Shown one piece after another: positions 2,641-52,084 of a stretch of DNA of 64,000 bases; position 1 is the stretch's first letter, and each line of letters starts with the position of its first letter. The translations under genes were made by a program, and so were the position numbers. The stretch spans positions 17,453 through 81,452 of the forward strand of contig JBPOHU010000003.1 of NCBI GenBank assembly GCA_052035195.1. Direction: 5' to 3'. The notes under the pieces are model-generated. The model worked only from the letters and a program-made list of their open reading frames with translations, did no database searches and was not told the DNA's origin. The DNA comes from Candidatus Nomurabacteria bacterium. Lineage in GTDB: Bacteria > Patescibacteriota > Minisyncoccia > Phycocordibacterales > UBA9973.

Positions 2641-2788
2641 TTTTAACTATTTATTTTCAAAAGTGCTGGTTTATACCGGCACTTTTTTATTCTTTAGGAC
2701 CTTATCTGTCTCAGATAGGGAGTTAAAGAATGGTATTGACAAAAGAGGCATTATTTGCTATAATACCAGTGTCGAAATTAAGAAAGAG

Positions 2789-8049: not shown

Positions 8050-8053
8050 AAAT

Positions 8054-9173: not shown

Positions 9174-9177
9174 ATAA

Positions 9178-9552: not shown

Positions 9553-9649
9553 ATATATAAAGGTAACTTGAGATGAGGTTTTATGCAAGGGAAGAATCTC
9601 TTAGGCACAAAATATAAAAACACCAACTTCTTGGTGTTTTTATATTTTG

Positions 9650-9722
9650 TGCCCTCAGTAGGATTTGAACCTACGACCGTCTCCTTAAGAGGGAGCTGCT
9701 CTACCAGCTGAGCTATGAGGGC
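9650..9722 (-). tRNA. tRNA-Lys (anticodon CTT)
   Basis: Manual cloverleaf: acceptor GCCCTCA/TGAGGGC, D arm GCTC..GAGC, anticodon loop CTCTTAA, T arm GTAGG-TTCAAAT-CCTAC; 73 nt. Confidence 0.8.
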
Positions 9723-9825
9723 AATTATTATTAGTACCTATTTGATGTTGTTGCGCGGGAGCCGCTACAACTTAGCTATGAGGGCATATTGCAAAAAGGC
9801 AAAAAAACTATACCATGACCACCAT

Positions 9826-10293
9826 ATGCAAGCAATACTAGTCTTACACGATATAAGAAGTGCCCAAAATGTGGGGTCTCTTTTTAGGACTTCTGATGCC
9901 CTAGGAATATCAAAAATATATCTAAGTAAAATAACACCTTGCCCAATAGACCGATTCGGAAGAGGGCGTAACGATATAGCCAAAACAGCACTCGGTGCCG
10001 AAAAAAGTATTTCTTGGGAACAGTATGAAGATATATTTAATGTATTAGAAAAATACAAAGCAGAAGGGTATCTTATAGTAGCAATAGAACAATCAAAAAA
10101 TTCTGTAGATTATAAAAAGGTTTTGGCTAAAGAAAAAACTTTATTTATTCTGGGTAATGAAGTAGAAGGTTTATCCAGTGAAATATTGGAAAAGGTGGAT
10201 TTTGTCGCTGAAATACCTATGGCAGGAGATAAGGAGTCTCTTAATGTGTCCGTTGCTGGCGGAGTAGCGTTGTTTAGGATTCTAAACAAATAG
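9826..10293 (+). CDS. SpoU/TrmH family RNA 2'-O-methyltransferase
   Basis: MQAILVLHDIRSAQNVGSLFRTSDALG ... LFILGNEVEGLS ... PMAGDKESLNVSVAGGVALF typical SpoU motifs; start taken at first in-frame ATG after the tRNA. Confidence 0.7.
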   Translation: MQAILVLHDIRSAQNVGSLFRTSDALGISKIYLSKITPCPIDRFGRGRNDIAKTALGAEKSISWEQYEDIFNVLEKYKAEGYLIVAIEQSKNSVDYKKVLAKEKTLFILGNEVEGLSSEILEKVDFVAEIPMAGDKESLNVSVAGGVALFRILNK

Positions 10294-10294
10294 C

Positions 10295-10462
10295 TTATCT
10301 ATTTTTTAGTTCGTCTATTGTATAAGGTCTACCTCCTTCTATGGGGGCTGGTTGCTCTAATAGTTGTCTATTTCTATTTTCAAATCTAGTTGGTCCGCCA
10401 GTAATAAGCCAAAGTATCCAAAGACCTATAAAAGCATATATAAACCATTTTAGTTCATCCAT
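10295..10462 (-). CDS. Small membrane protein (55 aa), hypothetical
   Basis: ORF MDELKWFIYAFIGLWILWLITGGPTRFENRNRQLLEQPAPIEGGRPYTIDELKNR with one TM; below the ORF-track size cut-off. Confidence 0.3.
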   Translation of the reverse strand: MDELKWFIYAFIGLWILWLITGGPTRFENRNRQLLEQPAPIEGGRPYTIDELKNR

Positions 10463-10483
10463 ATATTTATTATTGTAACATTT

Positions 10484-11407
10484 TTATTTTTGATGGATAT
10501 CACAAAAGTGGGCACTTCTTGCGCCAACCATGACCTTTCTTATTATTCCTTCGCAACCCTTTCTTTTGCAGGGTTTTCCTGTGAGCCGATATGCGTTGTG
10601 ATCATTTTGAAAGCGACCTCTTTTGCCATCAATGTCTCTATAGTCACTCATAGAGTCTCCGCCAAAGTCTATTCCTTTTTGTAGAACCTTTTTCATAGCT
10701 TTATACATCAAGCCAAATTCTTTTTTATTTATATTTTTTACTGAGCGTAATGGATGTACCCCGGATTCCCAGAGTAATTCATCTGCGTAGATGTTGCCGA
10801 TACCAGATACAATTTTAGGATCAAGCAAGACTTGTTTTATAGGACTGTTTGGTTTTTTTGAGATTCTTTTTATAAAGTTTTCTAGACTGAAATTTGCCTC
10901 TAGTGGTTCAGGTCCGTGGTGTTTCAAATGAACAGAGTCATAAAGACTATCAGTTTTTATCAAGGTTACTTTTGCAAATTTACGAACATCTGAAAGAACT
11001 AGATGTTTACTATTTTCAAATGAGAAAACGACATGAATAAATCTATTGTATGGGTCTTTGAGAGCTTCATTTTTTTCTTCTCGGTGGGGTGTCCATTTGT
11101 TTTGCTTTTTATCAAAATCATACTTACCGTACATCATGTGGCCGGTCATTTTCATGTGGACTAGTATGGTGTAACTATTATTTAAATGTATGAGTATGTT
11201 TTTTGCTCTTCTTTCTGCTTTTACTACCTTTGCATTTTTAACAGTTTTTCTGAAAAATTTATAAAAGACCTCATCTTTTAATGTGCCTATAAATTGTTTA
11301 ATAGGATTTGGTATAGCAAGATCTGTCCAAACATCAGTTATGGTTTGGCCTTTTGCTTTGCGGTTGATACCGTCTACTGTTGTTTGTACTTCTGGGAGCT
11401 CGGGCAT
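10484..11407 (-). CDS. mutM: Formamidopyrimidine/endonuclease VIII family DNA glycosylase (Fpg/Nei)
   Basis: N-terminal MPELPEV catalytic Pro; C-terminal zinc finger CKRKGC...CDIHQK. Confidence 0.8.
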   Translation of the reverse strand: MPELPEVQTTVDGINRKAKGQTITDVWTDLAIPNPIKQFIGTLKDEVFYKFFRKTVKNAKVVKAERRAKNILIHLNNSYTILVHMKMTGHMMYGKYDFDKKQNKWTPHREEKNEALKDPYNRFIHVVFSFENSKHLVLSDVRKFAKVTLIKTDSLYDSVHLKHHGPEPLEANFSLENFIKRISKKPNSPIKQVLLDPKIVSGIGNIYADELLWESGVHPLRSVKNINKKEFGLMYKAMKKVLQKGIDFGGDSMSDYRDIDGKRGRFQNDHNAYRLTGKPCKRKGCEGIIRKVMVGARSAHFCDIHQK

Positions 11408-24412: not shown

Positions 24413-26191
24413 ATGAAAATTTCTTATAACTGGTTACAAAATCATATAGAAGAAAAGCTCCCAAGTCCTGAAAGTCTCAGAGAGACTATTATTTTTCATG
24501 CGTTTGAAGTTGAAGACGTTGAAGAGAAGGGAGCAGATACTATTTTTGATATTAAGGTCTTGCCTGATAGGGCTCATGATTGTTTAAGTCATACTGGTGT
24601 CGCTAAAGAAGTCTCTGGTTTGCTCGGTTTAACTCTTAAAAACCCTTCTTTGCCAGAACTTCCTTTTACTCCCATAAATACAAAAGTTGAAATACAAAAT
24701 GAATTAGTTCGTAGGTATATGGCAATAGAGATGACAGGGGTAAAAGTTGGTCCTTCTCCAGAGTGGCTTAAAAATGCACTCGAATCTGTGGGTGCGAGAT
24801 CTATCAACAATATAGTTGATGCGACAAACTTAGTACTCTTAGATGATGGACAGCCTGTGCACGCATTTGATAAAGATAAAATAGACGGAGGAATAGTTGT
24901 ACGAATGGCTCATGAAGAAGAAAAGATAGTTACTCTTTCTGATGAAGAAAAAGTTTTGAAAAATACAGATCTTATTATTGCTGATTATTTAGGAGCACTT
25001 GCTATAGCTGGGGTAAAGGGTGGTAAAAGTGCTGAAATAACAGAAGACACAACAAATATTATTATTGAGATTGGAAATTTCGATCCAGTAGCAATTCGTA
25101 AGACATCTCGAAGACTCGCTCTTATTACTGACGCATCAAAGAGATTTGAAAATGAAATTAGCGCAGAAGTTGCCTCTGGTGCAGCTCGTCATGTTGTAAG
25201 TATCATAAAGCAAATTGCAGGGGGTGAAGTTGTAGGAGTATATGATCACTATCCTAAACCAGAACAAGAAAGAACACTTAGTTTTACCGTCGCTGATATC
25301 AAAAGGGTTCTCGGTGATACTATCAAAGAAGCACAAATAGATCTTTGGATTTCTAGATACAATATCTCCTCTACAAAAGATGGTGACAAATATACGATCA
25401 CTATACCAAGTGACAGACTAGATATTGTGGGTGCTCATGATATTGCTGAAGAGATAGGTAAGATGGTTGGTTATGAAAATATTCCGGCATTACCTATTCC
25501 TTTTACTCTTACTCCACAAAAAGATTCAGAATATAGAGTTGTGACTTCTGTGAAATATTGGCTTGCTCAAAATGGTTTTAGAGAGGTGATGAATTATAGC
25601 TTTACCAAAAAGGGTGATGTTTATATTTCTTATGGTGCTAAAGACAAAAGCGCTCTTCGAACCAACCTTTCAGATGCTCTAAAAGAAAGCTACGAAAAAA
25701 ACCGCATTAATGCCAGTTTGTTAGGTCTAAGTAGTATTAGAATATTTGAGATAGGTACTGTTTTTATAGGAGAAACAGAAATGGTGCATGTGGCTACTTG
25801 TGACAAGGGGAATTTTGAAGAGTTACCAATAAAAGACTTTATAGAAAAATACAAAATTGAAATTTCTAGTACTCCTAACAATTACTCACTACCTAATAAC
25901 TCTTTCAAAATGTGGTCCCCATATCCATACATTACTCGCGATATTGCAGTATGGTGCGATAGTATTGAGTCGCAAACTAGCCTTGAGGCTATTGTTAGTA
26001 GTTTTGCAAAAGAGCATTGTGTACGAGAGCCAGAGCTTTTTGACCGCTTTGAAAAGGATGGAAAAACATCTATAGCCTATAGGTTTGTATTTCAATCATA
26101 CGAGAAGACTTTGACTGAGGAGGAAGTAGAGAAGTGGTTTGTAGAACTTGTAAACAAAATAAAAGCCGAAAAAGTTTTTGAAATAAGATAG
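24413..26191 (+). CDS. pheT: Phenylalanine--tRNA ligase beta subunit (short form)
   Basis: MKISYNWLQNHIE start typical of PheT, B3/4 and B5 domains; immediately follows pheS. Confidence 0.85.
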   Translation: MKISYNWLQNHIEEKLPSPESLRETIIFHAFEVEDVEEKGADTIFDIKVLPDRAHDCLSHTGVAKEVSGLLGLTLKNPSLPELPFTPINTKVEIQNELVRRYMAIEMTGVKVGPSPEWLKNALESVGARSINNIVDATNLVLLDDGQPVHAFDKDKIDGGIVVRMAHEEEKIVTLSDEEKVLKNTDLIIADYLGALAIAGVKGGKSAEITEDTTNIIIEIGNFDPVAIRKTSRRLALITDASKRFENEISAEVASGAARHVVSIIKQIAGGEVVGVYDHYPKPEQERTLSFTVADIKRVLGDTIKEAQIDLWISRYNISSTKDGDKYTITIPSDRLDIVGAHDIAEEIGKMVGYENIPALPIPFTLTPQKDSEYRVVTSVKYWLAQNGFREVMNYSFTKKGDVYISYGAKDKSALRTNLSDALKESYEKNRINASLLGLSSIRIFEIGTVFIGETEMVHVATCDKGNFEELPIKDFIEKYKIEISSTPNNYSLPNNSFKMWSPYPYITRDIAVWCDSIESQTSLEAIVSSFAKEHCVREPELFDRFEKDGKTSIAYRFVFQSYEKTLTEEEVEKWFVELVNKIKAEKVFEIR

Positions 26192-34019: not shown

Positions 34020-35729
34020 ATGTTAAAAGCACTAGAACAGGGGATTAAAAAAGTAGTAGAGGAGCTCGGCCTGCCTGAGGTGACTTTTTCTCTTGAGCAC
34101 CCAAAGGAGCTCTCTCATGGAGACTATATGACCAATGTAGCCCTGATTGTAGGTAAACAAGAAAATAAAAACCCTATAGAGCTCGCAGGAACTATTGCTA
34201 AAAATCTAAAAAACCAAAATATCGAAGGAGTAGAAAGTATTGAAGTAGCAGGCCCAGGATTTATAAACTTCACACTCAAGCGACAAGTGTTTGTTAAAGG
34301 GTTAGTTGGTGCACAAGATAGTGAGTGGGGTAACACTGATGTATACGCGAACAAAAAGATTTTGATAGAACACTCAAGTCCAAACCTTTTCAAACCATTT
34401 CACATTGGACACTTGATGAACAACACAATCGGTGAAGCTCTCTATCGACTAGCGAAATCTTCTGGTGCACATGCAACTCCTATTTCTTTCCCATCTGACA
34501 TTTCTCTTGGTGTAGCAAAAGCGATTTATATTCTTCTTGAAAAATACGGAGAAGACTTTGTGCCGACTGATGTCTCAGTGCTCGGGGATGCTTATGTCGA
34601 AGGTGTAAGAAAATACCAAGAAGCAGAAGAAGAACAACCATGTGGAAGTATTGTGTATCGAGTGAAAGAAATCGCTGATAATTTATATGCACAAAAAGAT
34701 TCTCCAGAATTTACACTTTTTAATGCATGTAAAAAGTTAAATATTGCATATTTTGAATCAATTTTAAAAAACCTAGGATCTCACTTTGATTCATATATAT
34801 ATGAAAGTGAGGTCGGAGATGATGGAAAAAGAATTGTATTAGAAAATACTCCAAAGATATTCACTGAAAGTGAAGGAGCGGTTGTGTATATTCCAGAAGA
34901 GGGTAGCAAGCTCCATACCGCTGTCTTTATCAACAGCCAAGGAAATCCTACATATGAAGCAAAGGATATCGGTCTTCTTGATTTGAAATTCTCTCGTTAT
35001 CAACCAGATATTTCTATTACTGTCACTGACAATCAACAAACCTCACACTTCCAAGTAGTAGTAGATGCGGCTGGAAAAATAAATCCCGCATGGCAAAACA
35101 ATAGTGTGCACCGAAGTCACGGTCGCATGAGTTTCAAAGGCTCTAAGATGTCTTCTCGTCTAGGCAACGTGCCTCTCGTTGAAGATATCCTCTCTACTGT
35201 TTCAGAAGAGGTAAAAGAGAAAAATCCTGATGTGTCTGAAGAGGTAGCAAAACAGGTCTCTATCGCTGCTATTAAGTTTGCTATCCTTCGTACACAAGCT
35301 GGCAAGGATATAAATTTTGATCCCGATACTTCACTTTCATTCGAAGGGGATAGTGGTCCTTATCTGCAATATACCGCAGTACGAGCCGGAGCTCTTCTTG
35401 AGAAAGGGAAAGCTTTGGGTATCACTCCAAACACTGATACTCCTGTAGCAGGCCTGCCTGCGCAGGCAGGTGCAGAGACACTTGAGAGATTGATTGCTCG
35501 CTTCGTAGAGGTGGCAGGAGAAGCACAAAAGTCATGGGCACCACACTATGTAGTCTCATACCTTCTCGAGCTCGCACAAGCCTTCAACTCCTGGTATGGT
35601 CAAGGCAAGATTGTAGATGCGGAAGATGTGTCAGGTACAGCCTACCGCCTTTCTGTGGTTGCAGCAGCCCGCCAGACCCTCATAAACGGCCTCTGGGTCC
35701 TGGGTATTGAAACTCCTGAGAAGATGTAA
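34020..35729 (+). CDS. argS: Arginine--tRNA ligase
   Basis: HIGH motif SSPNLFKPFHIGHLMNNTIGEAL, ArgRS anticodon-binding C-terminal domain; 569 aa. Confidence 0.9.
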   Translation: MLKALEQGIKKVVEELGLPEVTFSLEHPKELSHGDYMTNVALIVGKQENKNPIELAGTIAKNLKNQNIEGVESIEVAGPGFINFTLKRQVFVKGLVGAQDSEWGNTDVYANKKILIEHSSPNLFKPFHIGHLMNNTIGEALYRLAKSSGAHATPISFPSDISLGVAKAIYILLEKYGEDFVPTDVSVLGDAYVEGVRKYQEAEEEQPCGSIVYRVKEIADNLYAQKDSPEFTLFNACKKLNIAYFESILKNLGSHFDSYIYESEVGDDGKRIVLENTPKIFTESEGAVVYIPEEGSKLHTAVFINSQGNPTYEAKDIGLLDLKFSRYQPDISITVTDNQQTSHFQVVVDAAGKINPAWQNNSVHRSHGRMSFKGSKMSSRLGNVPLVEDILSTVSEEVKEKNPDVSEEVAKQVSIAAIKFAILRTQAGKDINFDPDTSLSFEGDSGPYLQYTAVRAGALLEKGKALGITPNTDTPVAGLPAQAGAETLERLIARFVEVAGEAQKSWAPHYVVSYLLELAQAFNSWYGQGKIVDAEDVSGTAYRLSVVAAARQTLINGLWVLGIETPEKM

Positions 35730-38809: not shown

Positions 38810-39226
38810 ATGAGTAAAAGACTTCTTTTATCAGCATGCGTTCTAATATTTTTTATTTGGGCTATAAATAGCTTGGCCAATATGTTTTATTGGTATAGCG
38901 CTATGTGGTGGTTTGATATTCCAATGCACATTTTAGGAGGAGCTTTCTTGGCTTTACTATTGGGGGCAATATTTTTTAAAAAAATAGTTTCTTTAAATAA
39001 AAAAGAAATCCTAATAACTATTTTATTAGGTGTTGTTATTGTCGGAGCGGGGTGGGAAGTATTTGAATATGTAGTTCAACATATGATCAAAGGTCTTCCT
39101 CTTGCAAACTTTCCTGATTCTATAAAAGATATGTTGATGGATATTATAGGAGGATTTTTGGCATCATTTTTTGTATTAAAGGCTGTTAAGCGGTACAATA
39201 CAAGTCATGCAATCACAAATCTCTAA
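38810..39226 (+). CDS. Hypothetical integral membrane protein
   Basis: 138 aa, ~4 TM; weak VanZ-like resemblance only. Confidence 0.45.
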   Translation: MSKRLLLSACVLIFFIWAINSLANMFYWYSAMWWFDIPMHILGGAFLALLLGAIFFKKIVSLNKKEILITILLGVVIVGAGWEVFEYVVQHMIKGLPLANFPDSIKDMLMDIIGGFLASFFVLKAVKRYNTSHAITNL

Positions 39227-40610
39227 AGATTTTTCTGATAAAAAAATAAAAATTACTTTTGCGGGTGGAACAGGTGCTGTTACTGGAGCAAACTTCCTAG
39301 TCGAAGCATTAGGAAGCGAACAAGAAATAAAATTCCTTGTTGATTGTGGTCTCGAACAGGGAACAAAGTCAGCTGATCAAAATAACTGGGCACCTTTCCC
39401 ATATGACGCTTCTAGTGTGGACTATCTTTTTATTACTCATGCACACATAGATCATATAGGTCGTATTCCAAAACTTATTTATGATGGTTTCAGAGGAACT
39501 ATTTATTCTACAGTTCCTACCAAAGACATTACTGAGCTAATGCTTGAAGACACCGCTCATATTTTAGGCAAAGGCGAAAATGAGCTTCTAAAGAAAATAT
39601 ATACAGATGAAAATATTCGCCAAGCTCTTTCGCAGTGGAAAGTAGTTGATTATCATCAAGACATAGCAATAGGAGAACTTATTTTTAGATATAGAGATGC
39701 GGGACACGTATTGGGTTCTGGAATGCTTGAGCTTATTTATAATAATAAAAAGATTATCTTTACCGGAGACTTAGGTAACTCTCCATCACCACTTTTGCGA
39801 GATACAGAAACATTAAAAAATGTTGATTATATGCTTATGGAAAGTGTCTATGGAGATAGAAATCACATGGCACGCGATAAGAGACGCTTGAGACTAGAGC
39901 AAATCATAGAAGATAACTATAAACGCAAAGGTACTCTTATTGTTCCAACATTTTCTCTAGAGCGTTCTCAAGAACTTTTGTTTGAGATCAACGAACTTGT
40001 TGAAAATAAACGTATTCCTGTCATGCCTATTTTCTTTGATAGCCCCCTAGGAATAAGACTGACAAAAATATATCGTCAGTACGGACAATACTTCAATGAA
40101 TTTGCCAGAACACAACTCAAAGACGGAGATGATATTTTCAACTTCCCAGGCCTCAAGTCTACGCTCCTTACAGATGAATCAAAAGAAATAGTAAAAGAAG
40201 ATAATCCAAAGATAGTTATTGCTGGAAGTGGTATGAGTAATGGAGGAAGAATACTTCACCATGAAGCCAACTTTCTTCCAGATGCGAACAACACACTTCT
40301 TCTCACTGGTTATCAAGGAGCGGGGACACTTGGAAGAATTATCCAAGATGGCGCAAAAAATATTCGCATCAATGGTCAAGATATAGAAGTGAGGGCACAC
40401 ATAGAATTTATTGATGGATATTCTGGTCACAAAGACTCTGATCACCTTATAGAGTTTGTAGAACAAACAGCAGACTCACTCAAGGCTGTGTACGTAGCGA
40501 TGGGGGAACCAAAGAGTTCAATGTTCTTAACACAAAGACTTAGAGATTATTTAGGAGTTATGGCTTATGCACCAGAACAAGGAGATGTAGTAGAATTAGA
40601 TTGTAATTAA
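39207..40610 (+). CDS. MBL-fold (beta-CASP-like) metallo-hydrolase, probable RNA-metabolising nuclease
   Basis: HAHIDH metal motif (YLFITHAHIDHIGRIP), later D/H/E motifs; 467 aa. Confidence 0.65.
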   Translation: MQSQISKDFSDKKIKITFAGGTGAVTGANFLVEALGSEQEIKFLVDCGLEQGTKSADQNNWAPFPYDASSVDYLFITHAHIDHIGRIPKLIYDGFRGTIYSTVPTKDITELMLEDTAHILGKGENELLKKIYTDENIRQALSQWKVVDYHQDIAIGELIFRYRDAGHVLGSGMLELIYNNKKIIFTGDLGNSPSPLLRDTETLKNVDYMLMESVYGDRNHMARDKRRLRLEQIIEDNYKRKGTLIVPTFSLERSQELLFEINELVENKRIPVMPIFFDSPLGIRLTKIYRQYGQYFNEFARTQLKDGDDIFNFPGLKSTLLTDESKEIVKEDNPKIVIAGSGMSNGGRILHHEANFLPDANNTLLLTGYQGAGTLGRIIQDGAKNIRINGQDIEVRAHIEFIDGYSGHKDSDHLIEFVEQTADSLKAVYVAMGEPKSSMFLTQRLRDYLGVMAYAPEQGDVVELDCN

Positions 40611-40612
40611 TT

Positions 40613-41197
40613 ATGGAAAACGAAGACAAACACGGACATTTGAAAATAAAACTTGGAGTCTCTGGTGCTGCTGAAACAGGCCACTGTGGTCTTGATGCTC
40701 TTGATAAAGCTAAAGAGCTCGGTAGAGAAGTTGTAAGACAAGGTGGTATTTTGGTAACAGGAGCTACAACAGGATTTCCTTTGTGGAGTGCTATGGGCGC
40801 AAAAGAAGAGAGAGGTATCTCTATCGGTCTTTCTCCTGCGTCAAATCCAAGAGAACATGTAGAAGGGTACAGACTACCGCTCGACTATATGGATCTCATC
40901 ATATATACAGGTTTTGGTTTTCCTGGAAGAGACCTTCTTTTTACTAGAAGTTGCGAAGCTTTGCTTATAGGTTGTGGACGTATAGGAACAATCCATGAAT
41001 TTACTATCGCTTTCGAAGAAGGGAAACCTATCGGAGTTCTAGAAGGAAGTTGGACTATGGATGAACAGATCCGTGACATGATAGAAAAAGGTAATAGACC
41101 AGCTGATAAAGTAATTTTTGATTCAGATCCAAAGCGATTGATAGAGAGGGTTATTAAAATGGTTGAAGCTGATAGGGCTGATTTGAATAAGAAATAA
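40613..41197 (+). CDS. LOG/SLOG-family Rossmann-fold protein (TIGR00725-like)
   Basis: ILVTGATTGFPLWSAMGA and LLIGCGRIGTIHEF resemble the LOG family GGGxG and PGGxGT motifs. Confidence 0.5.
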   Translation: MENEDKHGHLKIKLGVSGAAETGHCGLDALDKAKELGREVVRQGGILVTGATTGFPLWSAMGAKEERGISIGLSPASNPREHVEGYRLPLDYMDLIIYTGFGFPGRDLLFTRSCEALLIGCGRIGTIHEFTIAFEEGKPIGVLEGSWTMDEQIRDMIEKGNRPADKVIFDSDPKRLIERVIKMVEADRADLNKK

Positions 41198-41418: not shown

Positions 41419-44400
41419 ATGGATAACAATCAACAACAATCAAAATCTCAATCAGCTCTTCGAGAAGAAGAAGTACTTCAATTTTGGAAAGAAAAAGATA
41501 TTTTCAAGAAATCAGTTGAAAAGAATGTCACAGGCAAAGAATTTGTCTTTTTTGAAGGCCCACCGACAGCAAATGCAAAACCAGCACTTCACCACCTTGA
41601 AGCTCGTGCTTTCAAGGACGTGATACCTCGATACAAAACAATGCAGGGCTATCATGTAGCTCGTCGCGCAGGATGGGACACTCACGGTCTTCCAGTAGAG
41701 CTTCAAATAGAAAAAGCTCTTGGCTTAGAATCAAAGAAAGATATTGAGAAGTATGGAGTAGCAGCTTTTAATAAAGCCTGCAAAGAAAGCGTTTTCACTT
41801 ATATTAAAGATTGGGAAATTTTCACCGATCGTATGGGGTATTGGGTGGACAAAAAGAGTGCTTACTATACTTTCAACTCTTCTTATATGGAATCCCTCTG
41901 GCATATAGTCGGAGAAATAAATAAAAGAAATTTACTTTATAAAGATTACAAAGTTGTCCCATGGTGCCCTCGTTGTGGTACAGGACTTTCTTCTCATGAA
42001 CTCGCACAAGGCTATCAAGATGTAAAAGACTTGTCAGTGTATGCAAAGTTTAAAATTGTAGGACTTGAAAAAGCGTATTTTCTTGCTTGGACTACAACAC
42101 CATGGACTCTTCCAGGTAACGTAGCTTTGGCTGTTGGTAATGATATTGAATATGTTGAAGCAAAAGTAGGTGATGAAATTTTTGTTCTTGCAAAAGAAAG
42201 ACTTAGTTTACTTGCAGAAGGTTATGAGATTATTGCACAGCACAAAGGTTCTGAAATGATAGGAATGGAATATGAACCACTTTATCCATATCTCAAGAGA
42301 GAAGCAGAGAAGAAAGGGTTGGATACAACAAAAGCATTCAAGGTTTATACTGCCGACTTTGTTACAACTACTGATGGTACTGGTATTGTACATATAGCAC
42401 CGATGTATGGGGCAGATGACTTTGATCTTGGAACAAAGATGGGACTGACTAAATTCCACACTGTTAACGAAGGAGGACACTTTATTCCAGGCACTGATTT
42501 TCTAGAAGGACGTTTTGTAAAGGATGAGTCTGTAGCTGTAGACATTATCAAAGATCTTGCTGGCCGAGGACAACTTTTCAAAAAAGAAAAATACGAACAC
42601 TCATATCCACATTGTTGGCGATGTAAAACTCCGCTTTTGTATTATGCGCGAGACTCTTGGTATGTTCGCATGAGTGAGCTCCGTGACGATTTGCTCAAAG
42701 CAAACGATGACGTTAACTGGGAACCAGAACATATAAAAAATGGAAGATTTGGAGAATGGCTTCGAGAGGTTAAAGACTGGGCATTTTCTCGTGAGCGATA
42801 TTGGGGGACACCACTGCCTGTATGGGAGAGTGTCGATGGAGATAGAGTAGTTGTTGATTCTATTGATACTCTCAAGAAACTCTCTATTACTTCTCAAAAC
42901 AAATACTTCGTCATGCGCCACGGTCAAACAGACCACAATGTTCGTCAAGAATGGAATGCCACAATAACAAATCCAGATCCTCTTACAGAGAAGGGTATAC
43001 AACAAGTTAAAGATGCATCAAATAATTTCAAAGAAGATATAGATATCATTATTACTTCTCCTTTTTCTCGAACCAAAGAGTCAGCTCAAATCTTCAAAGA
43101 AACAAAAGGACTAAATGTTGAGATAATAGAAGACCCACGTATTGCCGAATGGAATGTCGGTAAAGAGTTTGATGGAAAACCATTTTCAAAATATTTTGAA
43201 GTTAGAAATGTAAATGAAGATCGGTATGGATTCAAGGCTTCTGACGGAGAATCATACTTGGATATATTGAAAAGATCAGGGGAATTTATTTATGATTTAG
43301 AATCAAAATATAAAGGCAAAAGAGTGCTTATCATGACGCACGGAGCCGTAGCTCGAGCGCTCGAACTCCATAGCCACGGTATATCTTTTGATTCTCTATA
43401 CAGAAATACTAGAGATTACAACAACTTTGAAAATGCTGATCTTCGAGAGATTAATTTTGTACCATTACCTCACAATGAAAACTTTGAGTTAGATTTACAC
43501 AAGCCTTATATCGACGAAGTGGAACTGTACAAGGATGGCAAAAAGCTCACTCGAGTAAAAGAAGTGATGGACGTATGGTTCGATAGTGGAGGTATGCCTT
43601 TTGCACAAGAGCATTATATGGGTGAAGGTACACTTTCGTATCCGGCTGATTTCATTTCAGAAGCCATAGATCAAACTCGAGGTTGGTTCTATACACTTCT
43701 TGCTGTTGGTGTACTTATGAATCGAGAGTCTCCATATAAAAATGTGATTTGTCTTGGGCACCTACTCGACAAAGACGGAAAGAAGATGAGTAAGTCTATC
43801 GGTAATATAGTTGAGCCATTTGAACAAATGGATACTTTTGGTGCGGATGCAGTAAGATGGTGGATGTATAGTGTTAATGCTCCAGGGGAGAGCAAGAACT
43901 ATGATCCTAAAAGCGTAGCCGAAATAAATAACAAAGTCTTTAATTTGTTTAACAACGTTTTATCTTTCTATGAACTTTATAGAGACAAAGAACTTGAAGA
44001 TCAAAATAATAAAAGTGAAAATATTTTGGACAAATGGATATTAGCAAGGCTAAATCAAACTCTAGCAGAGGTAACAAATTCTCTTGATGCTTATGATCTT
44101 TTCCGTCCAACTCGAGCTCTTCGAGACCTCATAGACGACCTTTCTACTTGGTATTTGCGACGAAGTCGTGATCGTATCAAAGATGGAGAAAAGCAGGCAA
44201 AGCAGACGCTCTACTATGTGCTCAAAAATACAGCTCAAGCTATGGCTCCTTTTGCACCATTTTTTGCAGAGCATGTATGGCAGAAGCTTAAGCTTGATTC
44301 AGATGCAGAAAGTGTTCACTTAGCCCTTTGGCCCGATTATCAAGAAGCTGACTCTGAGCTTATAAATAATATGCAAATTACCAGAAACTTTTGTACAGCA

Positions 44401-44796
44401 GGAAATGCGTTTCGTAAATCAAAAAATATCCCAATTAGACAGCCTCTTAAGCTTATGAAAATATCATATGATGCTTTATCAAAAGATCTTACTTCTCTTA
44501 TAGAAGAAGAACTTAATATAAAAATGGTTTTAGTTGATACTGAAATTCAGCCAGCAGGAGAGATATATGTTGATGAAGAAATTACTCCAGAACTCAAACT
44601 CGAAGGGGAATACCGCGAGCTAGTTCGCTTGGTCCAAGACATGAGAAAAGAAAAAGGTCTTACTCCACAAGATGAGATCTCTCTAACACTTCCAGAAAAG
44701 TACAATGAAATATTTGCTAAATTTGGCGAAGAATTGAAAAAGGTTGTTGGTGCGAGGGAAGTGTCAGTACAAGGAGAAGAAGTTATGCTTAGTTAG
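41419..44796 (+). CDS. ileS: Isoleucine--tRNA ligase with an embedded histidine-phosphatase (PGAM-like) domain
   Basis: HIGH-region PPTANAKPALHHLEARAFKD, editing domain, KMSKS (KKMSKSIGN). ~200-aa insertion with FVMRHGQTDHN and LIMTHGAVARAL between RYWGTPLPVWE and DVWFDSG. Confidence 0.9.
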   Translation: MDNNQQQSKSQSALREEEVLQFWKEKDIFKKSVEKNVTGKEFVFFEGPPTANAKPALHHLEARAFKDVIPRYKTMQGYHVARRAGWDTHGLPVELQIEKALGLESKKDIEKYGVAAFNKACKESVFTYIKDWEIFTDRMGYWVDKKSAYYTFNSSYMESLWHIVGEINKRNLLYKDYKVVPWCPRCGTGLSSHELAQGYQDVKDLSVYAKFKIVGLEKAYFLAWTTTPWTLPGNVALAVGNDIEYVEAKVGDEIFVLAKERLSLLAEGYEIIAQHKGSEMIGMEYEPLYPYLKREAEKKGLDTTKAFKVYTADFVTTTDGTGIVHIAPMYGADDFDLGTKMGLTKFHTVNEGGHFIPGTDFLEGRFVKDESVAVDIIKDLAGRGQLFKKEKYEHSYPHCWRCKTPLLYYARDSWYVRMSELRDDLLKANDDVNWEPEHIKNGRFGEWLREVKDWAFSRERYWGTPLPVWESVDGDRVVVDSIDTLKKLSITSQNKYFVMRHGQTDHNVRQEWNATITNPDPLTEKGIQQVKDASNNFKEDIDIIITSPFSRTKESAQIFKETKGLNVEIIEDPRIAEWNVGKEFDGKPFSKYFEVRNVNEDRYGFKASDGESYLDILKRSGEFIYDLESKYKGKRVLIMTHGAVARALELHSHGISFDSLYRNTRDYNNFENADLREINFVPLPHNENFELDLHKPYIDEVELYKDGKKLTRVKEVMDVWFDSGGMPFAQEHYMGEGTLSYPADFISEAIDQTRGWFYTLLAVGVLMNRESPYKNVICLGHLLDKDGKKMSKSIGNIVEPFEQMDTFGADAVRWWMYSVNAPGESKNYDPKSVAEINNKVFNLFNNVLSFYELYRDKELEDQNNKSENILDKWILARLNQTLAEVTNSLDAYDLFRPTRALRDLIDDLSTWYLRRSRDRIKDGEKQAKQTLYYVLKNTAQAMAPFAPFFAEHVWQKLKLDSDAESVHLALWPDYQEADSELINNMQITRNFCTAGNAFRKSKNIPIRQPLKLMKISYDALSKDLTSLIEEELNIKMVLVDTEIQPAGEIYVDEEITPELKLEGEYRELVRLVQDMRKEKGLTPQDEISLTLPEKYNEIFAKFGEELKKVVGAREVSVQGEEVMLS

Positions 44797-44800
44797 TTTA

Positions 44801-45406
44801 ATGAGTAAAAAACTAGTTATATTTGATTTTGATGGAGTGATTGTTGAGAGTCTGGATTTGTGGTTTCGTATAACACAAATAAATAATCCGGGACTGACAA
44901 AAGAAGAGTATTATTCTATGTCCCATGGAAATTATATTGAAGCTTTTGAGTCAAAAAAGTTGATATACACAGAAGAAGGATTAGAAGAGTATAGGAGTAA
45001 ATTATTTTTAATTGATTCGCCAAAAGAAATAGTTTCATTTATAGAAAACAATAGCAATAAATTTTTGTACGCTATAGTTTCTTCTGGAAATGAAATAACC
45101 ATAAAAAGGTTTTTAGAAAAAGAAAAGTTAGCAAATTATTTTACAGATATACTTGGTAATCAAACTCATAAAAATAAAAATACGAAGATTTCTAATTTGT
45201 TGGAAAAATATTCTCTAGAAAATAAAAACGCTGTTTTTATTACTGATACTCTTGGAGACATTCTAGAAGCTAATGAGACAGGGATTAAGAGTGTAGGAGT
45301 GCTCTGGGGTTTACATGATAGAGAAACCTTAGAAAAAGGAAATCCTGAGATAATAATAGGCAACCCAGGAGAATTAGAAGAAACAATAAATAGTATACTT
45401 TCTTAA
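44801..45406 (+). CDS. HAD-superfamily hydrolase
   Basis: Motif I LVIFDFDGVIV; start MSKKLVIF at 44801 (ORF-track 44744 overlaps the ileS end). Confidence 0.7.
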   Translation: MSKKLVIFDFDGVIVESLDLWFRITQINNPGLTKEEYYSMSHGNYIEAFESKKLIYTEEGLEEYRSKLFLIDSPKEIVSFIENNSNKFLYAIVSSGNEITIKRFLEKEKLANYFTDILGNQTHKNKNTKISNLLEKYSLENKNAVFITDTLGDILEANETGIKSVGVLWGLHDRETLEKGNPEIIIGNPGELEETINSILS

Positions 45407-45995: not shown

Positions 45996-47891
45996 ATGTC
46001 TTCTGAAGAAATAGACCATATCGCACAACTTCAACAAAAGCTATATGCTCGTGATCCTGAGAGTGCCCCTAAGCGCACTGTTGGTATTTTGCGCCCTCTT
46101 AAGTCAAGAGTTGAATCTTCTTGGGGGCAAGAAGATTTGGTCAAAGAAAAAAAGCGCCACATACCCATGATTTCTGGTTATAGAAGATTTTTTATTTTCT
46201 CTTTTATTTTTTTCTTAATAGCTCTGGCTGTTGCATTTTTCTCTGTTTATCGCGGAGCTGTTACTCTCTCAAGTAAAAATGTTGAGTTAACTATTTTAGG
46301 TAATTCTTTTGTTGCAGGAGGGGAGAGCTTGCCAATACAAGTAGATATGATTAACAAAAACTCTGCAGACCTTGTAGACGCTGAAATAACTATCTCTTAT
46401 CCCAAGGGGTCGATGGATGTAAGTGGTGCAGAAATGGAAAGGGTAAAAAAGGTTTTGGGTACTATATCTTCAGGAAAGACGAAAACAGAAGGATTCTCCG
46501 TTATTCTATATGGTGAGCAAGGTACTAGTCGAACAGTGACTGCTACTCTTGAATATAAGCTTGCTGGGTCAAATACAACGTTCGTCAAAGAGAAATCTTT
46601 TTCCGTTATGATAAATTCTTCTCCCGTATCACTCACTGTGGATGCTCCTACATCAACAGCTTCAAATCAACCATTTAATATGACTATCAGAACCGTCTTT
46701 ACTGGAGACTCAATACTGGAAGACGCTATTGTTAGAGTTGAATATCCAAATGGTTATGTTTTCTCTTCTGCTGTACCAGCCCCAGAGAGCGGAACAAATG
46801 TTTGGGCACTTAAAGATTTGGTTAAAGGAACAGAGAGAACTATTTCTATAAGAGGGAAATTGATAGGAGAAGAGCAAGATGAAAAAGCTTTTCATATTTA
46901 TGTAGGATCAAGATCTAGTGAGACAGATTCACGAATTGCTGTTTCTTATAATTCTGTTTTACATAGCACTACTATAGAACAACCATTTATCTCTGGTGTT
47001 ATAAGTATTGGTAATGTACAAGATGATGTTGTCGCTCTTCCAAGCGGGTCTAATGTCTCAGGTGTTATTAAGTTTGTTAACAATGCCCCTATTAGGATTA
47101 CAAACCCTATTTTTACTTTGTATTTAAATGGGGAGACTATCGGTGTTGATTCAATAGAAGCTCGAGGTGGTAGATATGACCCTTTGGAGAAAACTATCGT
47201 TTGGAATAATGAAACGAGCTTGGACTTATCTGCCATAGAAAGTGGTGCTCAAGGAGAACTTCCTTTTAGTTTCAATACAACACTACCTAAGCCGGGTACT
47301 GCAGGGGATATAAACTTGTCGCTTTCGGTTTCCGGAGTTTTCCCTGATAGAGACTTTTTTGAAGATAGTATCTCTGATATTGATCAAAAGATAATCCGTT
47401 TTTCTTCTCGTTTGCAGTTTGCTTCTCAGTCTCTTTATTCAGTGGGCCCTATAAAAAACACAGGACCATTTCCGTCTAGGGTAGATAAGGAAACGACATA
47501 TACTATTTCTTGGACAATGAAACCAGTCGAAAACCCTCTTTCAAAAGCTGTAGCTACAGCAGTACTGCCTCTCGGCGTGTCTTGGACAGGGGTTATTTCT
47601 CCTCAATCTGAAAATGTTTCTTTTGACCCAGAAACAAGAATAGTTTCTTGGGCAATAGGATCTATTCCAAGAGCTACTACAAATGCTTTTACTCGCTCAG
47701 TTGCTTTCCAGGTAAAGGTTAAACCAACTAAAAGTCAGCTAGATTCCGACCTTGATTTAATAGGAGAGACAACTATTAACGCAACAGATACTATAGCCAA
47801 TACGCCTTTGACAATAAGTCGACCAGCCCTTACTAATCGCCTAAGTACTGACCCTATCTATTCCCCAGGGAAGGAAAAAGTGCTACCATAG
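45996..47891 (+). CDS. Membrane-anchored protein with extracellular beta-sandwich repeats, hypothetical
   Basis: TM at aa ~60-85 (FFIFSFIFFLIALAVAFFSVY), then ~540 aa Thr/Ser/Val-rich beta-type repeats. Confidence 0.5.
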   Translation: MSSEEIDHIAQLQQKLYARDPESAPKRTVGILRPLKSRVESSWGQEDLVKEKKRHIPMISGYRRFFIFSFIFFLIALAVAFFSVYRGAVTLSSKNVELTILGNSFVAGGESLPIQVDMINKNSADLVDAEITISYPKGSMDVSGAEMERVKKVLGTISSGKTKTEGFSVILYGEQGTSRTVTATLEYKLAGSNTTFVKEKSFSVMINSSPVSLTVDAPTSTASNQPFNMTIRTVFTGDSILEDAIVRVEYPNGYVFSSAVPAPESGTNVWALKDLVKGTERTISIRGKLIGEEQDEKAFHIYVGSRSSETDSRIAVSYNSVLHSTTIEQPFISGVISIGNVQDDVVALPSGSNVSGVIKFVNNAPIRITNPIFTLYLNGETIGVDSIEARGGRYDPLEKTIVWNNETSLDLSAIESGAQGELPFSFNTTLPKPGTAGDINLSLSVSGVFPDRDFFEDSISDIDQKIIRFSSRLQFASQSLYSVGPIKNTGPFPSRVDKETTYTISWTMKPVENPLSKAVATAVLPLGVSWTGVISPQSENVSFDPETRIVSWAIGSIPRATTNAFTRSVAFQVKVKPTKSQLDSDLDLIGETTINATDTIANTPLTISRPALTNRLSTDPIYSPGKEKVLP

Positions 47892-47897
47892 CCCATA

Positions 47898-49304
47898 ATG
47901 AAAGTATCTATGGAACAACTCATTAGTTTATGTAAGCGCCGGGGTTTTGTATTCCCGTCTTCTGAGATATATGGTGGTATGGCTGGAGTTTATGACTACG
48001 GTCATTATGGAAGTCTACTTAAAGACAATATTCGTTCTGCTTGGCTTCGTCATATGGTACAGCTCCGAGAAGATGTAGTTGGTCTTGATAGTGCTATTTT
48101 TATGCATCCAACTACTTGGAAGGCGTCGGGTCATGTCGATGGATTTAATGATCCTCAAGTAGATTGTAAAAACTGTAAATCTCGTTTTCGAGCTGACCAT
48201 ATACTTGAAGACCTCGGCATTTCTGCTGACAAGGCTAGTATAGAATTTATAAATCAAGAACTAGATAAATTAAGAGAAGATAAAAAGCTAGTCTGTCCAA
48301 ATTGTAATAAAGCCACTCTTACAGAAGCTCGAGTGTTTTCAATGATGGTTAAGTCTAACCTAGGTTCTCCTGTTGATGTTCTCGATGAAGAAAATGTAGT
48401 TTATCTTAGGCCGGAGACTTGTGGTGGTATTTATCTTGAATACAAAAATACATTAGATAGTCTTCACCCAAAACTTCCTTTTGGTATTGCTCAAGTAGGT
48501 AAAGCTTTTAGAAATGAAATAGCGGCTAGACAGTTTATTTTCCGAACTAGAGAGTTTGAACAAATGGAAATGCAATACTTTCACAAGAAAGAGCAAACCA
48601 AAGACGTTTTTGAAAGATGGCAAGAAGCCAGAATGAAATGGTATCTCGCATATGGTATCCCCGAAGAGAAGCTTCGTTGGTTTAAACATGAAAAGCTAGC
48701 TCATTATGCAAGTGAGGCTTATGACATAGAGTATGATTTTTCTGGACTAGATGGATTCAAAGAAGTAGAAGGGATACATGCTCGAGGAGATTGGGATCTA
48801 TCTCAACACTCTAAGTTCTCAGGAGTAGACCTGTCTTATTTTGATGAAGAAACAAAAGAGAGATTTATCCCTCATATTGTAGAGACATCAGCAGGACTCG
48901 CACGTCACTTTTTGATGTTTCTAGATAATGCTTATACAGAAGAAGAAACTGAAAGTGGAGATACTAGAGTATTTTTGAAACTTCACGGTGCTCTAGCTCC
49001 TATAAAGTGTGCAGTCTTTCCACTTCTTAAAAACAAGCCTGAACTTGTAGCAAAAGCACGAGAAGTATTTCTAACACTACGAACAAAGTTTATGTGTGAA
49101 TTTGATGACAACGGAAACGTAGGCAAGAGATATCGCCGACAAGATGAAATAGGTACACCATTTTGTGTTGTAGTTGATTTTGATACTCTCGGAGAAACTC
49201 CAGATTTGTTTGATACTGTTACTGTTCGAAATCGTGATACGGGTAAGCAAGATAGAATAGCGATATCAGAGCTAGAAAAATACATAGAAGATCGAATAAA
49301 ATAA
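47898..49304 (+). CDS. glyQS: Glycine--tRNA ligase (alpha2 dimeric type)
   Basis: MKVSMEQLISLCKRRGFVFPSSEIYGGMAGVYDYGHYG, class II motifs, anticodon-binding C-terminus. Confidence 0.9.
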   Translation: MKVSMEQLISLCKRRGFVFPSSEIYGGMAGVYDYGHYGSLLKDNIRSAWLRHMVQLREDVVGLDSAIFMHPTTWKASGHVDGFNDPQVDCKNCKSRFRADHILEDLGISADKASIEFINQELDKLREDKKLVCPNCNKATLTEARVFSMMVKSNLGSPVDVLDEENVVYLRPETCGGIYLEYKNTLDSLHPKLPFGIAQVGKAFRNEIAARQFIFRTREFEQMEMQYFHKKEQTKDVFERWQEARMKWYLAYGIPEEKLRWFKHEKLAHYASEAYDIEYDFSGLDGFKEVEGIHARGDWDLSQHSKFSGVDLSYFDEETKERFIPHIVETSAGLARHFLMFLDNAYTEEETESGDTRVFLKLHGALAPIKCAVFPLLKNKPELVAKAREVFLTLRTKFMCEFDDNGNVGKRYRRQDEIGTPFCVVVDFDTLGETPDLFDTVTVRNRDTGKQDRIAISELEKYIEDRIK

Positions 49305-50617: not shown

Positions 50618-52084
50618 ATGGAAAATAAAAAATTTTATATAACTACAACTTTACCTTATGTGAATTCTGATCCACATGTTGGTTTTGCCATGGAAATAAT
50701 ACGAGCTGATAGTATCGCTAGGTTTAAAAAACTATTGGGTTATGAAGTATTTTTCAATACTGGCACTGATGAGCATGGACAAAAACTTTTAGCGGATGCT
50801 ACTAAAGCGGGTAAGACACCAAAAGAATATGTAGATTATTATGCAGAACAATTTAGAGGACTAAAAGATCTTTTGGGTATAACAGAAGATGTACATTTTA
50901 TTCGTACTACAGACGAACACCATGAAAAGGCAGCTCAAGAGCTTTGGAAGATTGTAGAGAAAAATGGCTATATATATAAAAAGAATTATCAAGCTAAATA
51001 TTGTGTTGGTTGTGAGCTTGAAAAAACAGATAGTGAGCTCAACGAAGAAGGCCAGTGTCCTATACACCCAGGGAAAGATTTGGAAATAATAAATGAAGAA
51101 AATTACTTTTTTGCCTTTTCTAAGATTGCTCCAATGATTGAAAATCTTTACAAAGAAAAACCTTCTTTGGTTATACCAGAATTTAGGTTTAATGAAATGA
51201 AAGCTTTTTTATCTAGAGGAATAGAAGATTTTTCTATTTCAAGATTAAAGAGCAAAATGTCTTGGGGAGTACCGGTACCAGGAGATGAAGAGCACGTGAT
51301 GTATGTTTGGTTTGATGCTCTTACTAACTATATTTCTACATTGGGATGGCCAGAAGATGAGAAAGGTTTTTTCAGAGATTTTTGGCAAGAAGGAGAGAAG
51401 GTTCAATATTGTGGTAAAGATAATACTCGCCAACAATCAATGATGTGGCAAGGAATGTTGCTTGCAGCCGGATTACCAACAACAGATCATATAATAATAA
51501 ATGGTTTTATAAATTCTGGTGGGCAAAAAATGTCTAAATCTTTAGGAAATGTTTTAAGCCCCTATGATATCATCGCTATTTTCGGAGCTGTAGCAGGAGA
51601 GCGATCTAGCGATGTTTTAAGATATTATTTACTTCGTCATATGAATTCTTTTGAAGATTCTGATATGACACTCGAGAGTTTAAATGAAGCCTATCAATCT
51701 GGACTCTCTAATGGTATTGGAAACTTAACTTCACGCATAATGACATTATCCGAATCTCACTGTGAAGGTTTTGATGAGCTTCCAAATGTTATGCATCCAG
51801 AAAATATAATAAAAGCAGTTGAGTCTTTCGATATTCAAAAAGCTATGAACTACATTTGGGAAAACATTGCAACTATTGATCAAAAAATTCAAATTACCAA
51901 ACCTTTTTCTGTTATTAAAGAAGACAGGGAAGCAGGAATTGCCATTATCAACGGTCTTGTTTCTGATCTATACGGTATTGCTATATCTCTTGCTCCATTT
52001 ATGCCAAAGACAAGTGAAAGTATTATTGAATGCATTCGTAATAATAAAAAACCAGAAGTACCACTTTTTGCACGCTTACAGTAA
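50618..52084 (+). CDS. metG: Methionine--tRNA ligase (short form)
   Basis: TTTLPYVNSDPHVGFAMEII (HIGH-type), zinc knuckle CVGCELEK...CPIH, KMSKS (QKMSKSLGN); 488 aa. Confidence 0.9.
   Translation: MENKKFYITTTLPYVNSDPHVGFAMEIIRADSIARFKKLLGYEVFFNTGTDEHGQKLLADATKAGKTPKEYVDYYAEQFRGLKDLLGITEDVHFIRTTDEHHEKAAQELWKIVEKNGYIYKKNYQAKYCVGCELEKTDSELNEEGQCPIHPGKDLEIINEENYFFAFSKIAPMIENLYKEKPSLVIPEFRFNEMKAFLSRGIEDFSISRLKSKMSWGVPVPGDEEHVMYVWFDALTNYISTLGWPEDEKGFFRDFWQEGEKVQYCGKDNTRQQSMMWQGMLLAAGLPTTDHIIINGFINSGGQKMSKSLGNVLSPYDIIAIFGAVAGERSSDVLRYYLLRHMNSFEDSDMTLESLNEAYQSGLSNGIGNLTSRIMTLSESHCEGFDELPNVMHPENIIKAVESFDIQKAMNYIWENIATIDQKIQITKPFSVIKEDREAGIAIINGLVSDLYGIAISLAPFMPKTSESIIECIRNNKKPEVPLFARLQ

Follow-up and report, generated by a model that had tools for sequence, protein, structure and literature searches.

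A histidine-phosphatase domain nested in the CP3 subdomain of a type-2 isoleucyl-tRNA synthetase from Candidatus Nomurabacteria and related uncultured bacteria

The stretch of DNA analysed here, hereafter the window, comprises 64,000 nucleotides of contig JBPOHU010000003.1 from a Candidatus Nomurabacteria bacterium, and holds on its (+) strand an ileS gene for an isoleucyl-tRNA synthetase (IleRS) that carries a phosphatase domain of the histidine phosphatase superfamily within one of its connective peptides (CP), the CP3 subdomain. The gene is one unbroken frame of 1125 residues with IleRS sequence on both sides of the insert. Its main features are given below in window positions; invariance refers, here and throughout, to an alignment of 74 sequences, made up of the window protein and 73 full-length open reading frames (ORFs) from independent genomes, which are 45-90% identical.

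41419..44796 (+), stop codon included: ileS, coding for the 1125-residue type-2 IleRS with nested phosphatase (single ORF, TIGR00392, Pfam, superposition of the AlphaFold2 model)
41584..41595 (+): class I signature in the non-canonical G/AXHH form, A56-L57-H58-H59, replacing HxGH (family alignment)
42088..42108 (+): WTTTPWT motif of the CP1 editing domain, residues 224-230, invariant in 74/74
42769..42807 (+): CP2-3 linker VKDWAFSRERYWG, residues 451-463, just upstream of the insertion; matches yeast IleRS 453-ARDWNVSRNRYWG-465
42808..42888 (+): N-terminal arm of CP3, residues 464-490, TPLPVWESVDGDRVVVDSIDTLKKLSITS, colinear with insert-free type-2 enzymes up to about residue 489
42889..43464 (+): nested histidine-phosphatase domain, residues ~491-682, Pfam His_Phos_1 core at 497-664 (PF00300; boundaries from the insert-free relative P0019; predicted local distance difference test, pLDDT; ratio of nonsynonymous to synonymous substitution rates, dN/dS)
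42916..42924 (+): RHG motif, R500, H501 (predicted phospho-accepting nucleophile) and G502, invariant in 74/74; aligns with the RHG of PhoE (1EBB) and PspA (4IJ5)
43069..43071 (+): R551, second arginine of the phosphate pocket (SPFSRT), invariant in 74/74; counterpart of the conserved Arg in PhoE and PspA
43147..43149 (+): E577 of AEWNVG, predicted to serve as general acid, invariant in 74/74; aligns with the Glu of 'LREIHLG' in PhoE
43339..43344 (+): H641-G642, with the second catalytic histidine (MTHGAV), H641 in 74/74 and G642 in 64/74; corresponds to THG in PhoE
43465..43569 (+): C-terminal arm of CP3, residues 683-717, LPHNENFELDLHKPYIDEVELYKDGKKLTRVKEVM, strongly conserved across the family; corresponds to residues 480-514 of P. 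megaterium IleRS2, including LHKPY(I/V)D
43570..43590 (+): DVWFDSG, return to the catalytic HUP/Rossmann fold, invariant in the family; aligns with solved type-2 structures
43783..43797 (+): KMSKS signature loop, residues 789-793, invariant in 74/74
44029..44454 (+): anticodon-binding domain, residues 871-1012 (Pfam Anticodon_1, E=9e-34), followed by the type-2 C-terminal domain (DUF5915, residues 1049-1120)

Judged by these signatures, the host protein appears to be a fully competent type-2 IleRS (IleRS2) of the housekeeping kind, for which aminoacylation is predicted. An NCBIfam search gave it 858 bits with the ileS equivalog model TIGR00392 (cut-off 621.4), in a match that the insert splits into two stretches, and Pfam likewise recognised tRNA-synt_1 in two stretches with His_Phos_1 between them, as well as Anticodon_1 and DUF5915. 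A second editing motif, GTGxVH..MYG.DD (residues 320-334), is as invariant in the 74 relatives as WTTTPWT, and the editing site therefore appears intact. The AlphaFold2 model of the whole protein, computed on an 87-sequence alignment, reached a mean pLDDT of 85.9 and a predicted TM-score (pTM) of 0.76, and compares with the full-length IleRS2 of P. megaterium (8C9D) at a TM-score of 0.80; in a fold search with this model, every solved structure matched lacked the extra domain. At the position of the HIGH motif, residue 56 is Ala in 44 and Gly in 27 of the 74 sequences, and H58 and H59 are kept in 72 and 71, so that the signature reads (A/G)-(L/I)-H-H and is conserved throughout the phosphatase-bearing family. 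By its type-2 C-terminal organisation and its Gly/Ala-x-His-His signature, the window protein falls into the G/AXHH subclass of type-2 IleRSs as previously defined (PMC10485003). In some type-2 enzymes this motif raises the inhibition constant (Ki) of mupirocin by ~1000-fold at most with little catalytic cost, and the IleRS2 of D. radiodurans, which has exactly ALHH, shows a Ki of 6.6 mM (PMC10485003). Mupirocin hyper-resistance is linked to this motif, from which alone it would be predicted for the window enzyme. The models for the acquired-resistance enzymes MupA and MupB (NF000257 and NF000258) gave 733 and 746 bits, under their cut-off of 1900, which places the protein outside both types; it also falls outside the ileS_w_GNAT type (NF040702), with 324 bits against a cut-off of 1999 and no GNAT match in the Pfam scan.

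An IleRS with an embedded histidine phosphatase is what the original prediction, read from the letters of this DNA, had proposed, and the profile search against His_Phos_1 that it named as its own test has borne it out: within a protein of the TIGR00392 family, PF00300 matches residues 497-664 with 102 bits (E=4e-29) against a gathering score of 21.7, covers profile positions 2-170 of 194 and assigns the insert to branch 1 of the superfamily. The spacing of ~250 residues proposed between two conserved IleRS blocks also proved right, since 247 were counted between RYWGTPLPVWE (residues 460-470, nucleotide 42796) and DVWFDSGGMPF (from residue 718, nucleotide 43570), and the RHG near nucleotide 42916 and the second histidine near 43339 lie where they had been placed. 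The motif FVMRHGQTDHN starts at residue 497, ITSPFSRTKESA is found at residue 545, and LIMTHGAVARAL at residue 637 provides the His at nucleotide 43339. The catalytic set of branch-1 histidine phosphatases (the RHG histidine, two arginines, the second histidine and an acidic donor) is thus complete, and R500, H501, G502, N507, R551, E577 and H641 are invariant in 74/74 sequences. Outside these positions no part of the catalytic body is less conserved than the insert, where the column majority averages 0.56 versus 0.76-0.82 for the synthetase core. For the closest pairs of loci, in which dS is near saturation and the values are approximate, dN/dS by the method of Nei and Gojobori lay at 0.06-0.24 for the insert, against 0.05-0.12 for the core of the synthetase, all far below 1. 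The catalytic site is maintained by purifying selection. The structure prediction of the full protein that had been called for, run by AlphaFold2 with an alignment, gave the insert a pLDDT of 88-97 and an alpha/beta pattern, with no low-confidence linker at either junction, and from this model we conclude that the insert is a folded and firmly anchored domain. We infer that it is very probably catalytically active.

The borders of the insert can be drawn by comparison with enzymes that lack it. In the alignment with the IleRS2 of P. megaterium (8C8U), window residues 408-475 correspond to residues 396-463 and residues 685-793 to residues 480-594, and the 16-residue hairpin tip in between (464-479) is matched by 209 residues in the window protein (476-684), a net gain of ~193 residues. 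Much closer is P0019, an insert-free relative with 74% identity on both flanks (window residues 231-489 and 683-786), whose junction reads ...VVDSVETLKRYSKEG-KIPTNEKGELDLHRPYID... in place of the ~190 residues of the window protein. This sequence is a fragment of 373 residues, and its sole source is one metagenomic contig of 1158 bp. Some 30 more distant bacterial IleRS2 fragments have a loop of 5-8 residues at the insertion site, and the segment is also missing in the canonical type-2 IleRSs of P. megaterium, T. thermophilus, yeast and Candida; the proposal of an insertion, which would have been undone had canonical type-2 enzymes contained this segment, therefore stands. The insert is dispensable in at least one close relative, P0019, and seems likely to have been lost there secondarily, since members of the fused family diverge among themselves far more than P0019 does from the window protein. 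As P0019, for all its 74% identity, does without the insert, and so does every canonical IleRS2, the insert would be accessory and outside the aminoacylation mechanism.

In the nomenclature of the Candida and yeast enzymes, the insertion site is the CP3 subdomain (CaIleRS 473-534, ScIleRS 459-526), which follows the CP2-3 linker, and in yeast this linker, ARDWNVSRNRYWG, lines the pocket of reveromycin A, which is the site of the tRNA 3'-CCA end (PMC7955072). The topology of CP3 differs in each solved IleRS, no other subdomain of the enzyme varying as much in fold between species, and zinc is bound only in Thermus (PMC7191050). In the IleRS2 of P. megaterium, CxxC pairs flank the CP3 site as a CxxC...CxxC zinc knuckle, and likewise in Thermus; these four cysteines are missing in the window protein (arms at ~42820-42850 and 43525-43550), in nearly all 74 relatives and in P0019. 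Their loss makes structural compensation conceivable, and the insert could be imagined as a non-catalytic module, either a degenerate fold that replaces the zinc knuckle or an added surface that binds tRNA or a partner, the more so as the core of the domain, outside the active site, evolves faster than the synthetase core. We consider this very unlikely. P0019 lacks both the zinc cysteines and the insert, so that CP3 does not need the latter for its stability, and a degenerate pseudo-enzyme was rejected on the strength of the alignment, where not one of the 74 sequences, at 45-90% identity, departs from the catalytic set, as would be the mark of a working active site.

The architecture is common to many related uncultured bacteria, with at least 80 species genomes and ~145 protein clusters at 50% identity sharing it. 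When GTDB was scanned with one genome for each species, 390 stretches were found that encode a relative of the flank, insert and flank together, of which the best 80 were inspected; since the flank supplied one of the six search patterns, some of the other 310 may be insert-free. All but one of these 80 span the whole query with 44-74% identity (the exception, L046, ends at a contig edge), and at 73 loci a single ORF of >1000 residues contains both KMSKS and RHG. Records named by lineage come mostly from Paceibacteria-type members of the Candidate Phyla Radiation (CPR), namely Nomurabacteria, Zambryskiibacteria, Taylorbacteria and Minisyncoccia. Many other loci bear the submitter's label 'uncultured Candidatus Saccharibacteria', and one (L022) that of 'Nitrospira sp.'; these labels are unconfirmed and probably reflect errors of labelling or binning. 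Two Nomurabacteria ileS genes (L050 and L071) have stop-to-stop ORFs of 1352-1361 residues, ~200 above the family norm, with one copy of the phosphatase.

Protein databases gave the same picture. A phmmer search of 1.84 billion cluster representatives (clusters at 50% identity) returned 145 matches at E<=1e-30, and in nearly all of the 150 matches listed the whole 276-residue query aligned in one stretch, at about residues 450-750 of proteins of ~1150 residues when full length; the eight multi-stretch outliers that were scanned among the matches listed turned out to be IleRSs as well. PF00133 and PF00300 occur together in 120/120 of the best full-length matches. In the source records these proteins go by no other names than 'isoleucyl-tRNA synthetase' and 'class I tRNA ligase family protein'; annotation pipelines, which apply just the latter label, thereby miss the second enzyme. 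When the domain by itself was used to search for stand-alone relatives, two weak matches of 30-32% identity were found, and this search revealed neither a donor lineage nor a Rosetta-stone partner; in the ~1 Mb of sequence examined, phosphatases of this type are confined to ileS. The genome behind the window is uncultured and of the metagenome type, a setting in which an assembly chimera or a frameshift might join ileS to a separate phosphatase gene. However, the frame is continuous, the same in-frame architecture recurs in the 73 independent loci and the best full-length matches, the exact protein of the window is already on record on two contigs, and with a GC content (guanine plus cytosine) of 0.34-0.38, like its surroundings, the insert shows no break in composition of the kind expected from a chimera. 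An artefact is therefore effectively refuted by this recurrence in independent loci and databases, and we give it practically no weight.

As for the kind of phosphatase, a profile built from 31 inserts and compared with solved structures placed PspA (4IJ5), PhoE (1EBB) and CobC (6NRU) level at ~75 bits (E-values from 4e-20 to 7e-18), followed by fructose-2,6-bisphosphatases, TIGAR-like proteins and glucosyl-3-phosphoglycerate phosphatase. None of the 31 inserts reaches any NCBIfam equivalog cut-off: the best match, the CobC alpha-ribazole phosphatase model TIGR03162, scores 82-88 bits, about half of its cut-off of 162.9, and the PspA phosphoserine phosphatase models NF045917 and NF009994 give 43-54 bits against 350 and 277. 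A true phosphoglycerate mutase was ruled out, with 54-58 bits for dPGM_arch (cut-off 225) and 35-40 for GpmB (cut-off 261); in the solved dPGM mutases, the match of the insert profile is confined to the N-terminal ~90 residues, with no stretch passing. By these profile comparisons, the insert is assigned to the small-phosphatase clade of branch 1 that comprises PhoE, PspA and CobC, and not to the mutases. Of the initial description as a PGAM/SixA-type enzyme, the histidine-phosphatase part has thus stood and the mutase part has given way to a PhoE/PspA/CobC-like small phosphatase. As the domain shares no more than 32% identity with its stand-alone relatives, homology gives no ground for assigning it a substrate specificity.

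The histidine-phosphatase superfamily also includes the protein phosphatases SixA, PGAM5 and Sts-1, and toxin kinases are known to act on synthetases, HipA phosphorylating GltX and HipT phosphorylating TrpS. The insert could accordingly be a protein phosphatase for phosphoserine, phosphothreonine, phosphohistidine or phosphotyrosine, clearing IleRS itself, or a translation factor, of an inhibitory phosphorylation such as that by HipA-like toxin kinases. The SixA model is matched by 22/31 family members, the insert profile shows weak matches to Sts/UBASH3 structures (E ~1e-6), and the domain, nested as it is, would meet a target in cis at very high local concentration. However, small-molecule phosphatases outrank SixA and Sts as matches, no conserved kinase is found in the neighbourhood of ileS at the 80 loci, and we know of no kinase that targets IleRS. 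Overall, a role as a protein phosphatase strikes us as improbable.

More elaborate architectures occur in distant IleRSs that share 30-37% identity with the window protein. Phosphatase copies follow one another in tandem at the CP3 site, two in P0186 and P0202 and four in P0219, and in P0241, P0255, P0192, P0165 and P0208 one copy at CP3 is joined by a second where the anticodon-binding domain begins, ~70 residues past KMSKS. Most copies of the multi-copy relatives keep the RHG and xHG motifs. In P0200 (1561 residues; 6001-10686 of locus L081), a GNAT, a His_Phos and a second GNAT domain are nested in this order in the connective peptides of IleRS. The neighbour-joining tree of the phosphatase copies is star-like, with 30-38% identity, and only the tandem copies of P0219 cluster, which leaves intragenic duplication or independent capture as possible origins, either of which might have produced the second-site copies. 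Contigs of the multi-domain relatives reach 1.06 Mb and 2.1 Mb with 45-60% GC, and their gene neighbours include DAHP synthase and adenylosuccinate synthase, for which reasons their hosts are probably not CPR bacteria. The contigs of the multi-copy group (including 6001-10260 of locus L082) have ~45-52% GC and reach 1.06 Mb; P0200 is found on contigs of 0.2-2.1 Mb with ~57% GC, adjoining genes for GluRS, for TrpRS/TyrRS and for a sortase.

Back in the window (37% GC), ileS is preceded at 39207-41197 (+) by a gene for a metallo-beta-lactamase RNase-like protein of the beta-CASP/RMMBL type and one for a SLOG cluster-4 (LOG-like, nucleotide-binding) protein, a pair that is conserved in 32/80 loci; the beta-CASP protein shows a weak match to the PADLOC model LmuA (E=1e-6). 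At the stop codon of ileS begins a gene for a HAD-family phosphatase (HAD_2, DxDGV; 44744-45406 (+), with a likely true start near 44801), which adjoins ileS in only 11/80 loci. Synteny extends downstream to recO (66/80), a DUF11-like protein (64/80) and a class II aminoacyl-tRNA synthetase (56/80). No conserved partner gene or kinase was seen near ileS in the 80 loci, the neighbours being housekeeping genes only; since this is housekeeping synteny and the HAD phosphatase is present in so few loci, the surroundings offer no operon clue. Nor did an Rfam scan upstream of ileS detect a leader or riboswitch. Two weak DUF11-repeat proteins, probably at the cell surface, are encoded at 2519-4711 (730 residues) and 45996-47891 (+) (631 residues), the second being the one syntenic with ileS and recO in 64/80 loci. 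The window is also rich in synthetase genes (24413-26191, 34020-35729, 47898-49304 and 50618-52084), which code for PheT, ArgRS, a class II enzyme of the G/H/P/S/T type and a compact MetRS of 488 residues; these other synthetases of the window have ordinary domains, none of them with a phosphatase. Seven tRNA genes lie at 9.6-21.6 kb.

Taken together, these data lead us to favour, though with somewhat less than even confidence, a bifunctional protein in which a competent IleRS2 bears at the tip of its CP3 hairpin a complete phosphatase of ~190 residues that would act independently as a phosphomonoesterase. Following the standard chemistry of the family, H501 would attack the terminal phosphate of the substrate, held in place by R500, N507, R551 and H641, E577 would protonate the leaving group, and the resulting phospho-histidine intermediate would then be hydrolysed. 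With regard to the substrate, and a shade more tentatively still, we prefer a soluble phosphomonoester of low molecular weight, either a phospho-metabolite or a nucleotide monoester, on which the insert would act in trans; the IleRS would be a permissive, constitutively expressed carrier and CP3 a plastic site. The Ap4A initially suggested has no terminal phosphate and is consequently, on chemical grounds, poorly suited as a substrate for a phosphomonoesterase of the phospho-histidine kind. We infer both the substrate class and the independence from IleRS, the latter from the plasticity of CP3, the generic PhoE-like character of the domain, its acidity, the existence of an insert-free relative and the lack of a conserved partner gene. 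The inserts are acidic, with a median isoelectric point of 5.4 and no conserved basic patch, and for this acidity the domain would be unlike an RNA-binding module.

Some observations fit a mere carrier less well. Each of the 150 closest homologues listed from the search of 1.84 billion representatives sits within an IleRS, and the stand-alone relatives are distant; relatives with 2-4 tandem copies, or with a second copy after KMSKS, are poorly explained by a carrier; the arrangement persists in disparate hosts, from that of the window, at 37% GC, to genomes of 45-60% GC with contigs of up to 2.1 Mb; and no more than ~27 residues separate the start of the insertion from the CP2-3 linker, which lines the pocket of the tRNA CCA end. 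These points, the persistence in disparate hosts aside, have led us to weigh a phosphatase coupled to a ligand of IleRS, which would remove a 2'/3'-phosphate or a pyrophosphate from A76 of the tRNA and so enable charging, or would act on a nucleotide or a phosphorylated inhibitor. Nucleotide candidates at the synthetic site would include adenosine monophosphate, pyrophosphate, 3'-phosphorylated nucleotides and alarmones. For a coupling speak the location of the insertion directly after the linker of the CCA-end and reveromycin pocket, the exclusive embedding of the closest homologues in IleRS, the multiplication of copies within this enzyme at two different sites, and the model itself, whose lack of flexible linkers suggests a fixed pose on the enzyme. 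The GNAT domains beside the phosphatase of P0200 can be read in the same sense, the GNAT fold including enzymes that modify aminoacyl-tRNA or mimics of aminoacyl-adenylate. Blocking phosphorylation of tRNA 3' ends is, moreover, a real phenomenon, known from toxSAS toxins, which attach pyrophosphate to the CCA end, and from the SAH hydrolases that undo this modification (10.1101/2021.04.30.441581).

Against a coupling stand, however, the acidity of the insert and its lack of a conserved basic patch, the insert-free close relative P0019, and the fact that a phosphatase on IleRS alone would be no answer to a general attack on tRNAs, the other synthetases of the window being without the domain. 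PADLOC-DB defence models, when run against the insert, matched 0 families, and we know of no member of the histidine-phosphatase superfamily that acts on RNA ends. We regard a coupled phosphatase as a serious, though less probable, alternative. The specific form of a built-in repair or counter-toxin activity, which before charging would strip from tRNA ends the blocking phosphate or pyrophosphate left by toxSAS-type pyrophosphokinases or acceptor-stem tRNases, or would take an inhibitory phosphate off IleRS, is in our opinion a long shot. If true, it would represent a new class of quality control embedded in a synthetase, with the multi-copy and GNAT-bearing relatives as its elaborations.

Aminoacyl-tRNA synthetases are among the most conserved enzymes, and the nested domains known in them so far, chiefly editing domains, to our knowledge all serve translation. 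The retention of the phosphatase, its multiplication, its appearance at a second site and its combination with GNAT domains suggest either an activity linked to tRNA charging that has gone unrecognised (end repair, nucleotide turnover, or defence against inhibitors or toxins) or a role of an essential enzyme as scaffold, carrying unrelated enzymes in reduced genomes. In addition, the G/AXHH signature of the host bears on the evolution of IleRS2 variants under antibiotic pressure. The original prediction knew of no synthetase with an inserted phosphatase, and none is described in the literature searched, where the studies of IleRS evolution of 2023 and 2026 are silent on the insert. The components are each known (an IleRS2 of the G/AXHH form, a PhoE/PspA/CobC-like phosphatase, and domains nested in class Ia synthetases), and it is their combination that appears undescribed.

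Compared with known systems, the insert is alike in fold family and size (~190-210 residues) to PhoE (1EBB/1H2E), PspA (4IJ5) and CobC (6NRU, 6E4B), with which all its catalytic residues align, but these are free-standing proteins, whereas the phosphatase of the window is nested within another enzyme. A CobC/PhoE-like histidine phosphatase is likewise fused to an enzyme of nucleic-acid metabolism in the RNase H/acid phosphatase of the Rv2228c type (NF005567), the phosphatase half of whose model is matched by 31/31 inserts, with a score of 65 against a cut-off of 326. That protein, however, is an end-to-end fusion with another partner enzyme, in contrast to the loop-nested domain of the window; we know of no settled rationale for it either. 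Precedents for transferase and hydrolytic domains nested in the connective peptides of IleRS are offered by ileS_w_GNAT and by the CP1 editing domain, the latter working on the own product of IleRS, whereas for the phosphatase a link to the IleRS reaction is only conjectured. Finally, the IleRS2 of P. megaterium (8C8U/8C8V/8C9D) and that of D. radiodurans are enzymes of the same type as the window protein, which is 33% identical to 8C9D, shares with them DUF5915, KMSKS and the editing motifs, and has the same ALHH as the enzyme of D. radiodurans. Where the type-2 enzymes studied so far have a CP3 hairpin with a 16-residue tip, the window protein has a phosphatase of ~190 residues, and the zinc cysteines are gone.

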